Source: Dehalococcoidia bacterium
GTDB lineage: Bacteria; Chloroflexota; Dehalococcoidia; GIF9; UBA5629
DNA: 51,605 nucleotides
Direction: 5' to 3'
Assembly (NCBI GenBank): GCA_003142375.1
Contig: PLME01000019.1
Location: forward strand, 37,102 to 88,706
The notes beneath the pieces were generated by a model. It ran no database searches, was not told the DNA's origin, and worked only from the letters and a program-made list of their open reading frames with translations. Shown piece by piece: positions 1,917 to 10,062 of the stretch. Position numbers and translations under genes: made by a program. Position 1 is the stretch's first letter, and each line of letters starts with the position of its first letter.

Positions 1917-1964
1917 CGTATCGAGGGCTGTCCCCAAGCGGGACAGCTCCGTATGTGTTTGACT

Positions 1965-4900
1965 ATGAACCTATATTTCTTAAGCGATGTAATTGAAGGG
2001 CTTCCGGAGTTCAAGCGGGTCTCGGACCGGCTGCGAAAAGACGCACAGGTCAGGCTCAATTTGCGCCTGCCTGAGCAGGCATACAGCTACTTTGCCGCTT
2101 CAATTTACAACTTGCTTGGCTTGCCCGTATTACTGGTTACTGCCCACCCCGATTCGGCGGCTAGGATCTGCGAACAGGTGAAGCTCTGGCTGCCGCCTGA
2201 GAACGACGCCAGCTTTTTCCCTGAGATCGATTTGCTGGGCGGGACGTCTGCCTCGGATCCTGTAATAACTTCCGACCGCATGAAAGTGCTGGCCAGTCTT
2301 TCCGGTTATGATAGCGGAGGCGATAGCAGCAGGCGCCCGTTTGTAGTTACCAGCGCACTGGCGCTGGCGGGCAGGTCTGCCGGAAAAGATGAGATCCAAT
2401 CAAGGCATCTTTCATTGGAAAAGGGCAGCTATATACATCAGGAAGAGTTGCTTGAACGCCTGCAGTCAATCGGCTACAAGTATGAAGAAGTCGTTGAGAT
2501 ACCGGGCACGTTTTTAAAGCGAGGTGGCATTGTAGACGTCTTCCCTGCAGGCCGTGAACTCCCGGTGCGCATAGAGCTCTTCGGCGATGAAGTTGACAGC
2601 ATCAGGGAATACGATCCCAGGACGCAGCGCTCGCAGGCGCAACTTACGTCGGTAACAATATTGCCTTCACAGGATGTTTCCGCTACAGGTAATGCCAATA
2701 TTCTGGATTATCTGCCCGTCAAGTCCATTCTGATTCTAGACGATCCCCAGCAGATTGAAGAAGAGATAAGAAAAATTGAAGAGGAAGCCAGGGATTTGAA
2801 GTCCTCGGACGAAAATGATAGCGGCAAAGCCGGGCAGACGACTGCCTATTTTGCCTGGGAAGAGATAGATGCCAGGATAGAAGCCCTAGACCATGTTATC
2901 CGGCTCAGCGCCTGGGACGAAGCCGAACCGGGCGGTAAAAGTTACGCTCTGCCATTTAAACCAGCGCCCGATTTTATGGCCAGGTTCTCTGCTTTTGCAG
3001 AACACTTACCCGAATTAAGACATCAAAATAAGCGGGTTATCATAGTAAGCCAGCAATCGGACCGGCTGAAGGAGCTTCTGGTCGAGCAGAATATCGAGGT
3101 TGCTCCTGCAATGCATCTTGCAGAGATGCCGCTGGAAGGTTCGCTGACCCTTATACAGGGATCACTCGGAGGAGGCTGGCAGCTTGATGATGAGCTTCTC
3201 TTGATGACAGACAGGGAACTGTTCGGGATTGTAAAGCAGCGTAGAGCGGTAAAATCCCGGCCTGTACCGCACCACCTGTTCTTGAATGATATTAATGTGG
3301 GAGACCTGGTGGTTCATATCGAACATGGGATCGGACGATTTGCAGGCGTAACCATGAGGGTCAGCGCCGGCGTTCAGAAGGAATATCTTATGCTTGAATA
3401 TGCCGGTAGTGACACACTTTACGTTCCCATAGATCAGGTGGCACGTGTCAGCCTGTATATAGGTGGGGGAGAACGGACCCCGTCTCTCAGCCGTCTCGGG
3501 TCGCAGGAATGGAACCGGGCCCGTCAGAAGGTCAAGGAATCGGTTGCCGATATAGCGGGCGAGCTAATAGAACTCTATGCCACCAGGGAAGCGGGAGGCG
3601 GATTGAGATTTTCGCCGGACACGCTCTGGCAGCAGGAACTCGAAGCATCTTTCCCCTATGTTGAAACAGCCGACCAGGTCGATGCTCTGAAGGCGGTTAA
3701 AGCTGATATGGAATCTTCGAAACCTATGGACCGTCTGGTATGCGGTGATGTGGGCTACGGCAAGACCGAGGTCTCCGTGCGAGCTGCCTTCAAAGCAGTG
3801 ATGGATGGCAAACAGGTTGCCATCCTTGTGCCGACCACCATCCTGGCGCAGCAGCATTTAAACACCTTCACGGAAAGGTTGAAGTCTTTCCCCGTCAAAG
3901 TGGCTGCCCTGAGCCGTTTTTGTACTCACCGGGAACAAATGGACATGGTTGAGGGAGTCAAAAAAGGGACGATAGATATATGTATAGGAACGCACAGGCT
4001 GCTGCAAAAGGACGTCGTTTTCAAAGACCTGGGCCTGGTTATTATCGATGAAGAGCAGCGCTTCGGCGTCGCTCATAAAGAGCATTTCAAGAAGATGCGG
4101 CAGTCGGTGGACGTGCTGACCCTCAGTGCCACTCCTATCCCCCGTACTATGCACATGGCACTGTCGGGCATCCGCGATATGAGCACGATCGAGACGCCGC
4201 CTGAAAACCGAATGCCGGTTAATATTTATGCCGGCGAATTTAATGAAAGGTTGGTTCGTGAAGTCGTACTGCGTGAACTTGAACGTGACGGCCAGATATT
4301 TCTGGTACACAACCGGGTGCACAGTATAGATGAACTGGCCGCAGGGATAGCCCGGCTGGTGCCTGAAGCCAGGGTTTCTGTTGCACACGGTCAGATGGAC
4401 GAAGAGAAACTACAGCGTGTTATGAGCGATTTTGTGGAGGGCAAAAGTGATGTGCTGGTTACCACGACTATCATCGAATCCGGTTTGGATATGCCCAATG
4501 TTAATACTTTGATCGTGGACAGCGCCGATAAGATGGGGTTGACACAGCTTTACCAGTTGCGCGGCAGGGTCGGCAGGGGCGCCAATGCAGCCAGTGCCTA
4601 CTTTTTCTTCGACTCGGGCAGAACGATGACGGAGCAGGCCAGGGAGCGCTTGAAGACGATTGCCCGCGCCACTGAACTCGGGGCGGGCTTTGCCATAGCC
4701 ATGAAGGACCTTGAAATAAGGGGGGCGGGCAACCTGCTGGGTGTAGAGCAAAGCGGCAACATTGCCGCCGTTGGATTTAACTATTATAGCCGGCTTTTAG
4801 CTGAGGCGGTCGAAGAGATCAAGGCTAAAAGGGAAGGGCGTGAGGCAGTGAAGAAGGTCGAGGAACCGGCAGTATCGATCGAGCTTGCCCTGCCGGCTTA

Positions 4901-5309
4901 CATCCCCCAGGAATACATAGGTGAGACACGCACCAGGTTTAATATCTATCAGCGGCTGGCTCTAGCAACCTCGACGGACGCTGTCCATGATATCGGTGAA
5001 GAAATGATCGACAGGTTTGGCGAACAGCCGGAAGAGGTCGAGAATCTTTTATATATTGCTGAACTCAAGCAAGCCGCCATGCGCGCCGGAGTAGAATCCG
5101 TGAGTATGAATGAGGATATTGTTACCATTTCATTCAACGATCAGGCAGCCGCCGACGGCCGGCTGTCACTTGTAGTCAGAAACCGGGCGCTCAAAATCGG
5201 GAACAGGCAAATTAAGCTTGATACCGATATAGCGGGAGAAAATTGGCGGACAATTCTCAAATCGCTGCTTGACGAGATCGGCGCTACTGTAGCAGAGCAA
5301 TTGACTTAA
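1965..5309 (+). CDS. mfd: Transcription-repair coupling factor
   Basis: UvrB-like N-terminus ([22 protein letters not shown]), CarD/RID domain (VVHIEHGIG), SF2 helicase ([23 protein letters not shown]), TRG motif [12 protein letters not shown]; start 1953 or 1965. Confidence 0.97.
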
Positions 5310-5315
5310 TAGAGG

Positions 5316-5573
5316 TCAGTCATCGATCCCTGCTTCCAACAGGTAATCCACCAGGTTCTGCACTGTGACGATGTTGTCTGAGTCATCATCGGGTATTTCC
5401 AGCTTGTTGCCCTGCGTGCTGAAGTTATCTTCTATAGTGGTAAAAAACTCGGCCAGGTCATCAGGGTCCATATTCAAATCGTCAATAAATGAAGCCGAAG
5501 GGATGACAGCCGTTTCATCCACTCCCAGCTCATCAACAAGTATTTTCTTGATACTATCTAATATCTTGGGCAA
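5316..5573 (-). CDS. acpP: Acyl carrier protein homologue lacking the phosphopantetheine-attachment serine (DSL -> DPD)
   Basis: ACP signature (ELGVDE...ASFIDDL, EIPDDD...IVTVQNLVDY) downstream of fabD and nusB; codon 37 (5463-5465) is CCT/Pro; TTG start. Confidence 0.85.
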   Translation of the reverse strand: MPKILDSIKKILVDELGVDETAVIPSASFIDDLNMDPDDLAEFFTTIEDNFSTQGNKLEIPDDDSDNIVTVQNLVDYLLEAGIDD

Positions 5574-5632
5574 CTGACCCCTCGGATAAATTATACGATG
5601 TGCGATGCGTATCTATCAATCTATTTATTTCG

Positions 5633-6046
5633 CTATTTTGGTAATTCTGAAATTGCTGAACCCAGCACGCCGTTTATGAATTTAGGCGAAGTGTCGGCGC
5701 CGAACTCCTTGGCCAGCTCCACTGCTTCGTTAATTGCCACCTTGGGAGGTGTCTTTTTATTTATCAGGATCTCGAAGAGGGCCAGCCGCAGGATATTGCG
5801 GTCCATGGGAGCCAGTTGATCTACGGGGAAGGTGGGGGCATAGCGGGCTATAGTGTTGTCCAGCAACTGCTTGTTATCGATTACGCCGTGCAGAAGAAGG
5901 GCGGAAAAGTCAGCCGCCTCACCTTTAAATTCCTGCTCCTTGACTGTACGTTCCAGTATGTCTTCGGGGCTATTGGCCGCGAATTCCAGTTCGAATAGTG
6001 TTTGCAGGGCGATGATCCTTGCGCGATGCCTGAGACCCCTGGACAT
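5633..6046 (-). CDS. nusB: Transcription antitermination factor NusB
   Basis: RHRAR, DRNILRLALFE, VAINEAVELAKEFG, KFINGVL. Confidence 0.96.
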   Translation of the reverse strand: MSRGLRHRARIIALQTLFELEFAANSPEDILERTVKEQEFKGEAADFSALLLHGVIDNKQLLDNTIARYAPTFPVDQLAPMDRNILRLALFEILINKKTPPKVAINEAVELAKEFGADTSPKFINGVLGSAISELPK

Positions 6047-6093
6047 ACGATTACCGGAAGGAATTGAAGATAGCTCTGGAGGTGAGCCTTAGG

Positions 6094-7044
6094 CTATCTA
6101 CCACCCTTTCGCCATCTTACTATTTCGCTGGTACTCTGGGCGTTGCTTATATTATAGGTAAGAGCGCCCGGGCTGATGTTTTTGATGTACTTGGTTAATA
6201 CGTCGCCGGGCCCCACTTCAAAAAATGTCGTAATGCCCCTGGCCAGCATGGCTTCTATACTTTGCTGCCATTTGACGCAATGAGCGATCTGACTTATCAA
6301 TTCTTCTTTGATGGCTTCAACGATATTCATGGGTTGGGCCGTAACATTGGCTACTACCGGGATAGTGGGCGCCTCGAACTTAAATTGTGAAACTGCATTA
6401 ATCATGCCTTCCAATGCCGGTTCCATCAGGGAGGAGTGGAAAGCCCCGCTGACTTTAACCGGTACCATACGCCTTGCACCTTTGACCTGCGCCAGCCTCC
6501 TGGCCTTGGCCAACTTCTGTTCATCCCCGGCGACTACGATGTTGTCCGGGGAGTTAATGTTGGCTATCTCCACGCCGGTGGTGATACAAATGCCCTCAAT
6601 AATATCTCTATCGACATCCATTATGGTCAGCATGCCGCCCGGCCTGCGGCGGCCGGCTTCGTTCATCAACCTGCCGCGTTCGCGGATCAAGCGGACTGCA
6701 TCGCCCAGCTTCATGATTCCGGATGCCACCAGAGCAGCATATTCTCCGGCGCCATGGCCGGCGACCATAGTAGCAGCCGGCAGCGTAAAATCAGTGATAT
6801 TTTCCGCTGCCCTCAGGCAGGCGACGTCAACGGCCAGCACGGCCGATTGTGCATTGATCGTTTGAGCGAGATCTTCCTCCGGCCCCTCAAAGCAAAGGCG
6901 TGATAGAGGAAAACCAAGCGCTTTATCTACCTCGTCGAAAACTTCCCTGGCTGCGTTATAGTGGACGTAAAGGTCTAGTCCCATGCCGACCTGTCTGGAT
7001 TCCTGGCCCGGAAACACATAGGCAACTTTTACTTCCTCGACCAT
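6094..7044 (-). CDS. fabD: Malonyl-CoA:ACP transacylase homologue lacking the catalytic serine (GHSxG -> GHGAG)
   Basis: FPGQ..GMG, RGRLM, ANINSP, VSGAFHS, EVGPG motifs; codon 98 (6751-6753) is GGC/Gly. Confidence 0.9.
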   Translation of the reverse strand: MVEEVKVAYVFPGQESRQVGMGLDLYVHYNAAREVFDEVDKALGFPLSRLCFEGPEEDLAQTINAQSAVLAVDVACLRAAENITDFTLPAATMVAGHGAGEYAALVASGIMKLGDAVRLIRERGRLMNEAGRRRPGGMLTIMDVDRDIIEGICITTGVEIANINSPDNIVVAGDEQKLAKARRLAQVKGARRMVPVKVSGAFHSSLMEPALEGMINAVSQFKFEAPTIPVVANVTAQPMNIVEAIKEELISQIAHCVKWQQSIEAMLARGITTFFEVGPGDVLTKYIKNISPGALTYNISNAQSTSEIVRWRKGGR

Positions 7045-7091
7045 TTACTTCCCTCCTTGAAATGCCTGATCAGCATATTAATTAAGCGGGG

Positions 7092-7292
7092 TTATTTCTT
7101 CTTCTTTTTAGCGCTTTTGATTTCGATGACTTCCCTGCCGTCGTATGTTCCGCAGGTTGGGCATATTTGGTGAGATAATTTCAAGCTGTGGCAGCGCGAG
7201 CATTCGATCGTCGCCGTGGGGCTCATTGCCAGATGACTGCGCCTCTTACCCTGACGCGATTTGGGGTATTTTTTCTTTGGAAGTGGTGCCAT
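7092..7292 (-). CDS. rpmF: 50S ribosomal protein L32 (Zn-ribbon form)
   Basis: MAPLPKKK...KRRSH, CSRC and CPTCG. Confidence 0.96.
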   Translation of the reverse strand: MAPLPKKKYPKSRQGKRRSHLAMSPTATIECSRCHSLKLSHQICPTCGTYDGREVIEIKSAKKKKK

Positions 7293-7801
7293 TAGACTTT
7301 GCTCTCCTTTTCTAGCTGTACTAACTTATCCCAACGATGGTCGTAAGCTTTATTTCTGTGCTTGCAATCGCCTTTTGCGAATTCCTGGCCGCAAACCGGG
7401 CAAATGCCGGGACAATCCGGCTTGCAGAGCAGTTTAGTCGGGGTTGCCATTATGATATATTGCCTGATAGCCTCGTCCAGATCAAGGATGTGGTTCTGGT
7501 CGATAGTCAATTCGTCGGCAGCTACTTCTTGATGTAAGCCTGAATTGATATCGATAACGGGGAAAAACTCATCCTCCATTTTAAATTTAATTGTTGTACC
7601 CGCCGGACAAAGGCACCTCGAGCAAAGCCCTTTTATTTGAGCTGTCAACTTGCCGGTCACCAGGATGCCGAGGCTGGTGCGAGTGAAATCGATATAACCG
7701 GCCACTTGGGTATCACTATTTTCGCCGGCCGGTTCATCAACTTTGTAGTTGCGCTTTGCTCCTACCGGCTCCTTAAGAAGCTGTGCAACATTAATTTGCA
7801 T
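7292..7801 (-). CDS. yceD: DUF177/YceD family protein
   Basis: CSRCL, LCKPDCPGICPVCG, RWDKL; directly upstream of rpmF. Confidence 0.92.
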   Translation of the reverse strand: MQINVAQLLKEPVGAKRNYKVDEPAGENSDTQVAGYIDFTRTSLGILVTGKLTAQIKGLCSRCLCPAGTTIKFKMEDEFFPVIDINSGLHQEVAADELTIDQNHILDLDEAIRQYIIMATPTKLLCKPDCPGICPVCGQEFAKGDCKHRNKAYDHRWDKLVQLEKESKV

Positions 7802-7830
7802 AATAATGCGTACGAATTTAAATTTGGCTC

Positions 7831-7859
7831 ATTATATGTTGAGATACGTTTAATGTCAA
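7831..7859 (-). promoter_or_regulatory. Perfect-consensus sigma70 promoter of the yceD-rpmF-fabD-nusB-acpP operon
   Basis: Minus strand TTGACA (7859-7854), 17 bp, TATAAT (7836-7831), 30 nt upstream of the yceD ATG. Confidence 0.85.
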
Positions 7860-8213: not shown

Positions 8214-8660
8214 ATGAAAGTCGTATTTATTGAGGATGTATCAGCCAAGGAGAAAAAAGGCGATATTAAAGAGGTATCCGCTGGCTACGCCAGGAATTTC
8301 CTCTTGCCTAGGGGACTTGCCATGCCGGCAACGCCCGGTTCCTTAAAGGCGGCGCAGAAGATAGCCGACGAGCGTGATAGAAAGCGCGTGCGCCAGCACG
8401 ATGAATATGTAGCACTTGCCGGACAAATCAACGGCCAGGAACTGCATTTTAAAGGTAAGGCCAGTGCCAAGGGCACGCTGCACGGCTCCATCACCAGTGC
8501 CGATATAGCCGAAAAGTTGTCCAAGCTCGCAAACGTCGAAATCGACCGGAAAAAGGTTGCACTTAAAACTACATTACATAAAGTTGGAAGCCATGAAGTC
8601 GAAGTTATTTTCTCCAAAGACGCGATTGCTAAGATAACAGTTATAATTGAAGAGGAATAA
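8214..8660 (+). CDS. rplI: 50S ribosomal protein L9
   Basis: [32 protein letters not shown]; AAGGAG SD upstream. Confidence 0.96.
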
Positions 8661-8670
8661 CCGGAGTTAG

Positions 8671-10062
8671 ATGAAAGAGACCCTTCCTCCCTATGATCTG
8701 GATGCTGAGGAAGCAGTCCTGGGATCGCTTCTCATAGACAACGAGGCGATCACGGAGATCGATACTATTATCGGTACCGAGGACTTTTTCAGCGAACAAA
8801 ACCAGCTCGTTTATAACGCCTGCCACAACCTCTCCCTGCGCGACGAGGCCATCAACCAGATAACAGTGGCGCAGGAACTGGTGCGTCATGGCAAGCTCGA
8901 TGAGATCGGAGGGGCTTCCTATCTCAGCCATCTGGTTTCCATAGTGCCGACCTCGCTGCATGTCAAGCACTATGCCCAGATCGTATTCAGGCTCTCGACC
9001 ATGCGGCGCTTGATAAGCGCGGCCGGTCAGATTGAATCCATCGGCTATAAAGCAGATCCGGACGTTGACCTTACATTGACCAAGTGCGAGGACATTATTT
9101 TCAAGCTCAGGAACAAGCAGGGCCGGGGTGAATTCGTGCCCATTCAGGATGCTTTAAACACCTATTTCGAAGAGGCGGGCAAGACCGCCCACGAAAAAGA
9201 TATGCAGAGCTTGAGGACCGGGTTCAATGCCATAGACAATGCGCTGGGCGGGCTTCAGCGCTCCGAGCTGGTCATCCTAGCTGCCAGGACCAGCATCGGC
9301 AAGACCAGTTTAGCTTTGAATATAGCCCGCAATGCGGCTATCAATCAGAAGGCCTGTGTTGCCATCTTCAGCCTGGAAATGTCACGCCGTGAAGTTATAC
9401 AGAGGTTGCTCTCCAGCGAGGCCAATATCGAATCGCAACATTTCCGCAAGGGAAGGTTTTCCGACCTGGAAGAGAAGCTGCTGCACCGTGATATTATCCC
9501 CCGGCTTGCTGATACATCCATATATATCGACGACACGCCCAACATGCGTATCAGCGAAATCCGCAGCAAGGCTAAAAGGCTGCATCTTAAGCGTAATGTC
9601 GACATGGTGATTCTCGACTATATACAGTTGGTGCGCGGCGATTCCAGGAATGATAATCGCGTGCAGGAGATCACCGAGATCACTCAATCGCTCAAAGCCC
9701 TTGCCAGGGAGATCGATGCCCCCGTTCTGGCTTTGTCTCAGTTAAGCCGCAACATCGAGCATCGCCAGGAGGGCAAGAGGCTAAAGCAACAGGTGAAGCC
9801 CCAGCTATCCGACCTGAGGGACAGCGGCAGCATCGAGCAGGATGCCGACGTCGTCCTGTTCATACATCGCTGGGACAAGATTTACCCTACCGAGGCAGAC
9901 TGGCAGCGGGAATATGGTGACGAGGAGCCATATCCCAAGGGGATTGCACACATTTTAATCGCCAAGAACCGCAACGGACCCACGGGCGAGGTGCCGCTGA
10001 GGTTCATACAGGAAATGACGAAATTCGATAACATGATCGTTGAAGTCGGCGCAGTCACATAG
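8671..10062 (+). CDS. dnaB: Replicative DNA helicase
   Basis: PPYDLDAEEAVLG, AARTSIGKT, FSLEM, LDYIQL, LSQLSR, LSDLRDSGSIEQDAD, AKNRNGPTG; no intein. Confidence 0.97.
   Translation: MKETLPPYDLDAEEAVLGSLLIDNEAITEIDTIIGTEDFFSEQNQLVYNACHNLSLRDEAINQITVAQELVRHGKLDEIGGASYLSHLVSIVPTSLHVKHYAQIVFRLSTMRRLISAAGQIESIGYKADPDVDLTLTKCEDIIFKLRNKQGRGEFVPIQDALNTYFEEAGKTAHEKDMQSLRTGFNAIDNALGGLQRSELVILAARTSIGKTSLALNIARNAAINQKACVAIFSLEMSRREVIQRLLSSEANIESQHFRKGRFSDLEEKLLHRDIIPRLADTSIYIDDTPNMRISEIRSKAKRLHLKRNVDMVILDYIQLVRGDSRNDNRVQEITEITQSLKALAREIDAPVLALSQLSRNIEHRQEGKRLKQQVKPQLSDLRDSGSIEQDADVVLFIHRWDKIYPTEADWQREYGDEEPYPKGIAHILIAKNRNGPTGEVPLRFIQEMTKFDNMIVEVGAVT

Follow-up and report, generated by a model that had tools for sequence, protein, structure and literature searches.

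Within a 51,605-nucleotide stretch of contig PLME01000019.1 from a Dehalococcoidia bacterium (hereafter the window), a compact operon on the minus strand of positions 5316-7859, in the order yceD, rpmF, FabD-like gene, nusB, ACP-like gene, encodes homologues of the malonyl transferase FabD and of the acyl carrier protein (ACP), both of which have lost the serine required for type II fatty-acid synthesis (FAS). It is quite likely that this pair has been kept for a function that involves neither acyl transfer nor phosphopantetheine, one protein being a pseudoenzyme and the other a pseudo-carrier. A serine-independent function is proposed because the two serines are gone and because purifying selection on the two genes is as strong as it is in FAS-proficient relatives. 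The features at issue are as follows:

6094..7044, minus strand: FabD-like protein, probable pseudoenzyme, 316 amino acids, no internal stop (TIGR00128, PF00698)
6751..6753, minus strand: GGC codon, Gly98 at the catalytic serine position of the FabD-like protein (alignment to 1mla)
5316..5573, minus strand: ACP-like protein, probable pseudo-carrier, 85 amino acids, TTG start (PF00550)
5463..5465, minus strand: CCT codon, Pro37 at the phosphopantetheine-attachment serine position of the ACP-like protein (alignments to ACPs in the PDB)

The FabD-like protein lies above the curated FabD threshold (283.6 bits against TIGR00128, with a cut-off of 260.9), matches PF00698 (117.6 bits) and aligns from end to end with FabDs of solved structure (3qat, E = 7.7e-57; E. 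coli 1mla, E = 5.8e-54). Positions 6745-6759 on the minus strand read GHGAG, where the elbow of E. coli FabD reads GHSLG in the 1mla alignment. In E. coli numbering, the changes are Ser92 to Gly98, Leu93 to Ala99, Gly12 to Glu15 and Gln14 to Arg17; Gln11 (Q14), Arg117 (R123), His201 (His203) and Gln250 (Q252) are retained in the window genome. The AlphaFold2 model has the expected architecture and an uncertain N-terminus, with a mean predicted local distance difference test score (pLDDT) of 75.2 and a predicted template-modelling score of 0.75. The ACP-like protein is barely above the cut-off of PF00550 (22.4 bits against 20.8) and under that of all 11 NCBIfam ACP models listed (for TIGR00517, 53.8 against 70.45); it matches a solved ACP with an E value of 5.7e-13. 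Positions 5457-5471 on the minus strand read MDPDD, and the alignments to solved ACPs place Pro37 at the serine of DSL. Its AlphaFold2 model (mean pLDDT 83.9) has helices at residues 2-16, 37-51, 62-67 and 71-80, such that helix II begins at Pro37, and there is a five-residue insertion ahead of helix III. The initial annotation of this DNA, made from the letters, had held that the FabD lacks its nucleophilic serine (GHGAG), that the ACP lacks its phosphopantetheine serine (DPD) and that both genes are full-length with neither frameshift nor stop. All of this stands: Gly98 aligns with Ser92 of 1mla, Pro37 replaces the serine of DSL, and both open reading frames (ORFs) are uninterrupted on translation. 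A frameshifted or truncated gene was thus rejected, none being seen.

The residues of FabD were compared in 121 sequences, comprising 47 of the window clade, 19 other Ser-less forms and 55 Ser-bearing forms. At the position of Ser92, all 47 members of the window clade have Gly, and the serine is gone in all Ser-less forms, which have also lost Leu93 and Gln14; Gly12 is Glu in every Ser-less FabD that covers the site, as against 2 of the 55 Ser-bearing ones. His201 is present in all 55 Ser-bearing sequences; it is Tyr in 39 of the 47 clade members (His persists only in 8, the window genus included) and Asn or Tyr in 16 of the 19 other Ser-less forms. His91, Arg117 and Gln250 are conserved in 121/121 sequences, and Gln11 in 112/121. 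The interface of E. coli FabD with AcpP has been defined (10.1101/2020.05.15.098798), with K189, R190 and K286 as interface residues and R190 as binding the 3'-phosphate of coenzyme A (CoA). In the window clade, the equivalent of K189 is Arg or Lys in 47/47, that of R190 is Arg in 45/47 and that of K286 is Lys or Arg in 47/47; moreover, Gly283, which is kept in 53/55 Ser-bearing FabDs, is Lys or Arg in 47/47 of the clade and in 17/19 of the other Ser-less forms. To judge from these alignments, the catalytic dyad has been given up, and the carboxylate-binding Arg and the basic ACP- and CoA-docking patch have been retained and even strengthened. Such a pattern would be that of a remodelled yet maintained interface or ligand site. 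The residue that follows the Gly in the 47 clade members is Ser (24), Cys (13), Ala (8), Thr (1) or Glu (1); in most of them, which read GHGSGE or GHGCGE, a nucleophile-capable residue thus stands one position out of register.

The ACP-like protein was examined in a set made of the query and its 120 best metagenome hits (64-100% identity). The serine is absent from 119 of these 121 proteins, where it is replaced by Pro in 106, by Ala in 10 and by Gln, Val or Thr in the others, and it is present in 2. Around this variable site, there is little or no variation in LNMD-x-DD, AEFF, ED-F and IP. The Leu37 of the canonical motif has become Asp, and the equivalents of D38 and E41 (D39 and E42) are invariant, leaving helix II acidic. 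Of the 120 best FabD hits in public metagenomes, 65 are without the serine; among them are all 46 whose identity is at least 71%, and these 46 read GHG[S/C/A/T/E]GE. A search of 1.84 billion representative sequences returned no stand-alone FabD-like relative above 49% identity, but multi-domain polyketide synthases swamped its results, which makes it uninformative on the spread of the Ser-less form.

The distribution of the losses was followed in 41 genomes (the window organism's own and those of its genus, family and order, here given G numbers), all of them metagenome-assembled genomes (MAGs). Forty of them contain a match to the FabD-like protein, and the fabD-nusB-acp synteny is general. 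FabF and AcpS go together: 25 genomes yielded both, and the other 16 neither:

G000-G003, G005-G008, G010, G011, G013, G015, G018-G021: genomes without FabF and AcpS

Among these 16 FAS-less genomes are some that are nearly complete (G002, 98%; G003, 98%; G007, 99%; G019, 97%), and none of the 16 gave a match to PF01648, which covers transferases of both the AcpS and the Sfp type. All 14 of the FabDs that could be read in FAS-less genomes are without the serine (Gly in 11, Asp in 3), as are all 15 of the readable nusB-adjacent ACPs, which have Pro, Ala or Gly; FabD went unread in G020, where a contig end cuts it, in G008 (67% complete, no hit) and, among the FAS-positive genomes, in G032 (fragments). 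GHSLGE is found at the fabD-nusB locus in 21 of the 25 FAS-positive genomes, and G004, G016 and G028 have a Ser-less FabD at the locus together with a second, Ser-bearing FabD in a separate FAS cluster. The idea that the two serine losses go together across a clade is borne out: in the 33 genomes in which both proteins could be read, 15 have lost both serines, 16 have kept both and 2 are mixed. On the scale of the class, FabF was found in 147 of 151 sampled genomes that are at least 85% complete, and all four without it belong to the window's family. The loss of FAS is peculiar to this lineage and not to the class Dehalococcoidia.

One genome of the same genus, G004, which is a single contig, has a live FAS beside the dead pair, whose FabD-like and ACP-like proteins show 96% and 89% identity to those of the window. 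The FAS genes form an island (G004:C1:2027000-2040000) some 250 kb from the dead pair, in the order carboxyltransferase, ACP, FabF, AcpS, FabK, FabD (GHSLGQ), enoyl-CoA hydratase, hydroxyacyl-CoA dehydrogenase, PlsX and FabF. The island is flanked by a DDE transposase, and its FabD and the second FabD of G016 cluster together, apart from the FabDs of the locus (support 100/95); the simpler reading of the sequences is that it would have been acquired. The presence of a working FabD and ACP in G004 did not free the dead copies from selection: the pair is non-redundant.

Selection was estimated within the genus (six genomes, 15 pairs) by the Nei-Gojobori method (NG86), the synonymous divergence (dS) of fabD being 0.33-1.09. 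The ratio of nonsynonymous to synonymous divergence (dN/dS) is 0.044 for the FabD-like gene and 0.047 for the ACP-like gene, and 0.070, 0.067 and 0.081 for nusB, rpmF and yceD, respectively. Goldman-Yang estimates of this ratio (omega) in the deeper set are rough, with synonymous near-saturation and tree lengths of 4-18 substitutions per codon; for the window Ser-less clade, the other Ser-less forms and the Ser-bearing family members, they are 0.048, 0.093 and 0.047 for fabD, 0.055, 0.090 and 0.081 for ACP, and 0.105, 0.115 and 0.058 for nusB. Both the FabD-like and the ACP-like genes are under purifying selection, and nothing points to relaxation. The initial annotation had argued for a new job rather than decay, and had linked this to co-occurring losses, to a dN/dS well below 1 with substitutions not private to one genome, and to missing FAS genes; each of these has held, and so has the argument.

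The window genome (2.14 Mb, 27 contigs, 92% complete, 0.16% contamination) appears to have no type II FAS. The FabD model and the PP-binding model each match one gene genome-wide, namely, the FabD-like and the ACP-like genes, and on the basis of these profile searches the idea of a further FabD or ACP hidden in the genome was rejected. At this completeness, no phosphopantetheinyl transferase of the PF01648 family (AcpS and Sfp types), no FabA/FabZ (PF07977) and no PlsX (PF02504) was found in the genome; nor was FabF, the four weak hits to the ketoacyl-synthase model PF00109 being thiolases. Canonical acpP, acpS, fabF, fabZ and plsX, which are among the genes that the initial annotation had proposed to look for, are thus none of them found. 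The four thiolase genes, on contigs C27, C10, C5 and C1, fit the β-oxidation of scavenged fatty acids; if run in reverse, they could provide a CoA-dependent route to acyl chains.

What the genome does contain is five PlsY, four DegV/FakB and one Dak2/FakA, which is beside two of the FakB genes. Together, FakAB and PlsY are predicted to convert free fatty acid to acyl-phosphate and then to lysophosphatidate, independently of ACP. The PlsY copies are at C17:75101-75676, C9:6864-7448, C6:25153-25644 and C5:36563-37078, plus one more; most family members have 3-11 copies as against 1-4 in Dehalococcoides-sized relatives. PlsC-type acyltransferases were found in 0/6 genomes of the genus, and the second acylation may have been taken over by a PlsY paralogue. 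There is also one acyl-CoA carboxyltransferase of 531 amino acids, by which malonyl- or methylmalonyl-CoA may be made. The earlier suggestion that the lineage obtains its membrane lipids in another way agrees with the presence of the FakAB-PlsY route and the absence of the type II FAS genes; other conceivable sources would be lipids of the archaeal or isoprenoid type, or a CoA-dependent β-oxidation running in reverse. The lineage, whose DNA recurs in peat metagenomes and whose close homologues carry names from Dehalococcoidia (Chloroflexota), probably consists of fatty-acid auxotrophs.

The losses can be followed back in time. At both codons, contigs of two other peat samples agree with the window in every letter (0 other letters), and the codons found in relatives vary synonymously (GGC, GGG, GGT and GGA for Gly; CCT, CCC and CCG for Pro). 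Sequencing error was rejected because independent contigs are identical and because the codons have undergone synonymous turnover; a doubt previously expressed as to whether raw reads might show Ser codons is answered by these peat contigs, which show the same Gly and Pro codons. Ser-bearing members of the family use AGC or AGT, from which Gly is one transition away, and Asp one more. A FabD tree with 41 rows places the family's 16 Ser-less FabDs in one clade (starred; support 96/89), in which the Asp forms are nested and from which that of G028 stands apart. There has been one old matched loss in the family, at least one separate loss in FabD (G028) and one in ACP (G009). The stem branch of the window clade is long (0.27 substitutions per site), as might be expected had the protein been remodelled for a time and then come under constraint again.

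Gene order tells of the same history. In G009, a FAS-proficient relative, it is PlsX-ACP3-FabG-FabF2-FabG-thioesterase-DegV, continuing as YceD-(rpmF)-ACP1-FabF-AcpS-FabK-FabD-radical SAM-NusB-ACP2. Compared with this, the window has no ACP1-fabF-acpS-fabK block between rpmF and fabD, and what is left is yceD-rpmF-fabD-nusB-ACP2, in which fabD and ACP2 are the Ser-less genes. The radical SAM gene (about 380-400 amino acids) lies between fabD and nusB in G009, G010, G015, G021 and G029 and is absent from the window; the genes are at L040 2533-3720, L045 1604-2743 and equivalent positions, with Pfam confirmation for G009 and G010 only. The nusB-adjacent ACP is one of two to four ACPs in the FAS-proficient relatives, and its motif within this family is DS[ASNT]D instead of DSLD. 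That of G009 (L045 874-1131) is NVGPSD, without Ser, in the company of a live FabD (GHSLGE) and of other ACPs with DSL. Since this paralogue has lost its serine where FAS is intact, its loss of serine is independent of the loss of FAS. The existence of paralogues, the DS[ASNT]D motif and the loss in G009 suggest that the nusB-adjacent ACP may already have been partly FAS-independent before FAS was lost. The initial annotation had taken FabD and ACP to be cognate partners; they remain neighbours in one operon, but this ACP is one of two to four paralogues and need not be the only partner.

These observations could be brought together as follows. A peat Dehalococcoidia lineage has lost type II FAS and would make its phospholipid from free fatty acids via FakA/FakB, acyl-phosphate and PlsY. 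The ACP1-fabF-acpS-fabK block would have been deleted from the ancestral operon, with fabD and the nusB-adjacent ACP paralogue surviving; the survivors would then have lost the FabD serine, the phosphopantetheine serine of the ACP and, in most clade members, His201 too. What would keep the pair is a binding or scaffolding role that predates the loss of FAS, in other words, moonlighting. We favour binding or scaffolding via the basic patch and the acidic helix II, in which the two proteins would probably still dock, the patch of the FabD-like protein on the invariant acidic helix of the ACP-like one. A prediction of their complex gave a score of 0.00 against a mark of 0.32 with controls not run, and it counts neither way. 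Candidate roles would be in ribosome biogenesis or in the sensing of a CoA-linked or carboxylate ligand via the invariant Arg117 pocket.

A simple alternative is early pseudogenisation, in which the genes would be decaying after the loss of FAS and the serine changes would be the first visible hits. The functional residues are indeed gone, and no partner enzymes are left in the genome. However, the ORFs are full length wherever they could be read, dN/dS is under the values of nusB, rpmF and yceD, omega equals that of the FAS-proficient relatives, and the Ser-less forms span 46 FabD clusters (at least 71% identity) and 120 ACP clusters (at least 64%) with invariant motifs, all of which makes decay barely credible. 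An assembly artefact, with the FAS genes lying in unassembled or unbinned parts of the MAGs, is extremely unlikely as well: the window genome is in 27 contigs and 92% complete, and some FAS-less relatives are only 67-87% complete, but the same genes are missing from G002, G003, G007 and G019 at 97-99%, the four genes that relatives have in the rpmF-fabD interval are absent from a contiguous stretch of the window, and the residue losses themselves fit disuse. Another possibility is that the proteins are still catalytic thanks to a displaced nucleophile (a Ser or Cys at +1, or else the Asp of GHD) and to an unrecognised transferase that modifies the ACP elsewhere. This could be read into the 24 GHGSGE, 13 GHGCGE and 12 GHD motifs among the 121 FabDs, into several ACPs of the sister subclade with D-[APG]-S-D, where Ser comes one position later, and into the retention of PlsX in G007, G015 and G021. 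We consider it very unlikely: with Ala at +1 in its FabD and Pro-Asp-Asp in its ACP, the window genus could use neither shift, His201 has given way to Tyr in most of the clade and to Asn or Tyr in most of the sister group, no PF01648 transferase was found in the 16 genomes, and there is no condensing enzyme to use a loaded carrier.

Two further explanations concern what the pair might do. The FabD-like protein might be a ligand sensor (of malonyl-CoA, another acyl-CoA or a free carboxylate) that regulates lipid uptake or incorporation with the ACP-like protein as its adaptor; sensing of CoA or malonyl-CoA by such a pair was the example of a job given in the initial annotation. Such a sensor would make sense of the conservation of Arg117, Gln250 and His91 throughout, of Gln11 in 112/121 and of R190 in 45/47, and the 531-residue carboxyltransferase may supply malonyl- or methylmalonyl-CoA. 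However, active enzymes conserve these residues too, and keeping them is not in itself a sign of binding; the carboxylate brought near the pocket by the change of Gly12 to Glu could fill it, making the conservation of Arg117 structural; and neither a regulator nor a DNA-binding partner was found in the operon with the ORF list and a family profile search. Sensing is conceivable, though on balance improbable. The pair might instead work in ribosome biogenesis, like mitochondrial MCAT and mitochondrial ACP (mtACP). The operon company of yceD, rpmF and nusB is conserved across the order, and the MCAT-containing PDB entries 8csp-8css are among the sequence matches of the FabD-like protein. Harper et al. 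(2022, PMC9892005) showed by cryo-electron microscopy that human MCAT has a role in the assembly of the small subunit of the mitochondrial ribosome, where it is an assembly factor that sequesters rRNA h31. On the other hand, bacteria in general have yceD and rpmF linked to fab genes, for which co-regulation is the usual explanation, four FAS genes part fabD from yceD-rpmF in some FAS-proficient relatives, and the Ser-less FabDs show no gain in net positive charge of the kind that would give an RNA-binding character (medians of -4 and -2 in the Ser-less groups versus -3 in the Ser-bearing one). That FabD and ACP hold an ancient, FAS-independent role in ribosome biogenesis, or in its coupling to growth, is doubtful, and a ribosomal task for this particular pair is similarly a long shot. 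Of the two mitochondrial proteins, MCAT belongs to the small ribosomal subunit and mtACP to the large one. If the idea were true, ordinary bacteria would mask the ribosome role behind an essential FAS, mitochondrial MCAT and mtACP would have kept it, and this lineage would bare it in pure form, with all five products of the yceD-rpmF-fabD-nusB-acp operon, its two dead members included, serving the ribosome.

Several points tell against retention of the pair for a non-catalytic function. The genomes compared are kin and are non-independent MAGs, and the weight of the co-loss is essentially that of one main event; in G028, only the FabD serine was lost and, in G009, only the ACP serine, so the losses are not strictly coupled. 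The roughness of the omega values in the deep set has been given above. The FAS-less genomes G007, G015 and G021 retain PlsX, which normally needs acyl-ACP, and most also retain PlsC. Ser or Cys is present at +1 in 37 of the 121 FabDs, in which a remnant of chemistry is just conceivable; the window genus, with its Ala, is excepted. Finally, expression rests on the only two RNA-library contigs on the operon, of 151 nucleotides within the FabD-like gene and of 201 nucleotides within yceD, and these short contigs could be derived from DNA.

The retention of a dead pair for binding or scaffolding has its closest precedents in a phosphopantetheine-less ACP and in human MCAT. Falekun et al. (2021, PMC8547962) reported that the mitochondrial ACP (mACP) of Plasmodium falciparum lacks phosphopantetheine and is essential via the Isd11-Nfs1 complex (LYR motif). 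This mACP resembles the present case in being an ACP homologue without the phosphopantetheine site where the enzymes of type II FAS have been lost, and in having a function independent of type II FAS; it differs in being eukaryotic and organellar, with a known partner (Isd11-Nfs1), whereas here the organism is a free-living bacterium that has also retained a dead FabD. Human MCAT, as described in PMC9892005, has the FabD fold with a structural role apart from acyl transfer, which means that the fold can moonlight; the ribosome-related setting is shared, though in our case it consists of gene context only, and the catalytic serine, unlike that of MCAT, is gone. With E. coli FabD and AcpP (1mla, 2g2z, 6u0j), the pair shares the folds, Arg117, Gln11, Gln250, the equivalents of K189, R190 and K286, and the acidic helix II; unlike them, it has Ser92 changed to Gly, Leu93 to Ala, Gly12 to Glu and the ACP Ser36 to Pro, in a genome in which AcpS, FabF, FabZ and PlsX were not found.

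Fatty-acid-auxotrophic bacteria, for instance Lactobacillus species without type II FAS, rely on exogenous fatty acids and use FakAB and PlsY, and they retain holo-ACP and AcpS for PlsX and PlsC. The lineage of the window is like them in its loss of de novo synthesis and in the activation of exogenous fatty acids by a fatty-acid kinase, and unlike them in having no phosphopantetheinyl transferase, PlsC in 0/6 genomes of the genus, and five PlsY. Pseudoenzymes are well documented in eukaryotes. A search of the full-text literature, with subscription journals outside its scope, gave nothing relevant on the loss of FAS or on dead FabD or ACP in Dehalococcoidia or other bacteria. The moonlighting of the ACP and FabD folds is known already, and this pair is a variant of that phenomenon; what appears to be undescribed is that, in a free-living bacterium, an enzyme and its carrier are inactivated as a matched pair throughout a clade with selection undiminished.

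ACP is among the most connected of bacterial proteins, and its roles outside FAS are hard to isolate. The present pair offers a natural separation-of-function system for the non-FAS roles of the FabD and ACP folds, which are difficult to study where FAS is essential. It also points to a peat Dehalococcoidia group of probable fatty-acid auxotrophs that would rely on community-derived lipids, with an unusual phospholipid pathway that is rich in PlsY, without PlsC and free of holo-ACP. This bears on attempts at cultivation and on lipid biomarkers and isotope labelling in peat.

The remaining features of the operon are as follows:

7831..7859, minus strand: sigma-70-like promoter match TTGACA-17-TATAAT (12/12) upstream of yceD, a consensus match only
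7292..7801, minus strand: yceD (DUF177, large-subunit rRNA accumulation protein family), first gene of the operon (PF02620, 80.4 bits)
7092..7292, minus strand: rpmF, ribosomal protein L32 (TIGR01031, 68.4 bits)
5633..6046, minus strand: nusB, transcription antitermination factor (TIGR01951, 134.3 bits)
5590..5619, minus strand: second promoter-like match TTGATA-18-TATAAT (11/12) in the gap between nusB and the ACP-like gene, a consensus match only

The gene company of rpmF and nusB behind a perfect TTGACA-17-TATAAT promoter, as first described, was found again, with yceD as an additional first gene. The 12/12 site lies 30 nucleotides before the ATG of yceD; promoter-like sites number 5 in the region against 4.3 in shuffled sequence, a count close to chance, so that what is notable about this putative promoter is its perfection alone. 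The gap that separates nusB from the ACP-like gene is 59 nucleotides long, and the ACP-like gene may also be transcribed by itself from the candidate site at 5590-5619. On the plus strand, a large ORF (1953-5309), which has helicase motifs and to the eye resembles Mfd, runs convergently towards the ACP-like gene; at the other end, two ORFs at 8214-8660 and 8671-10062, also on the plus strand and by eye L9-like and DnaB-like, diverge from the operon promoter.

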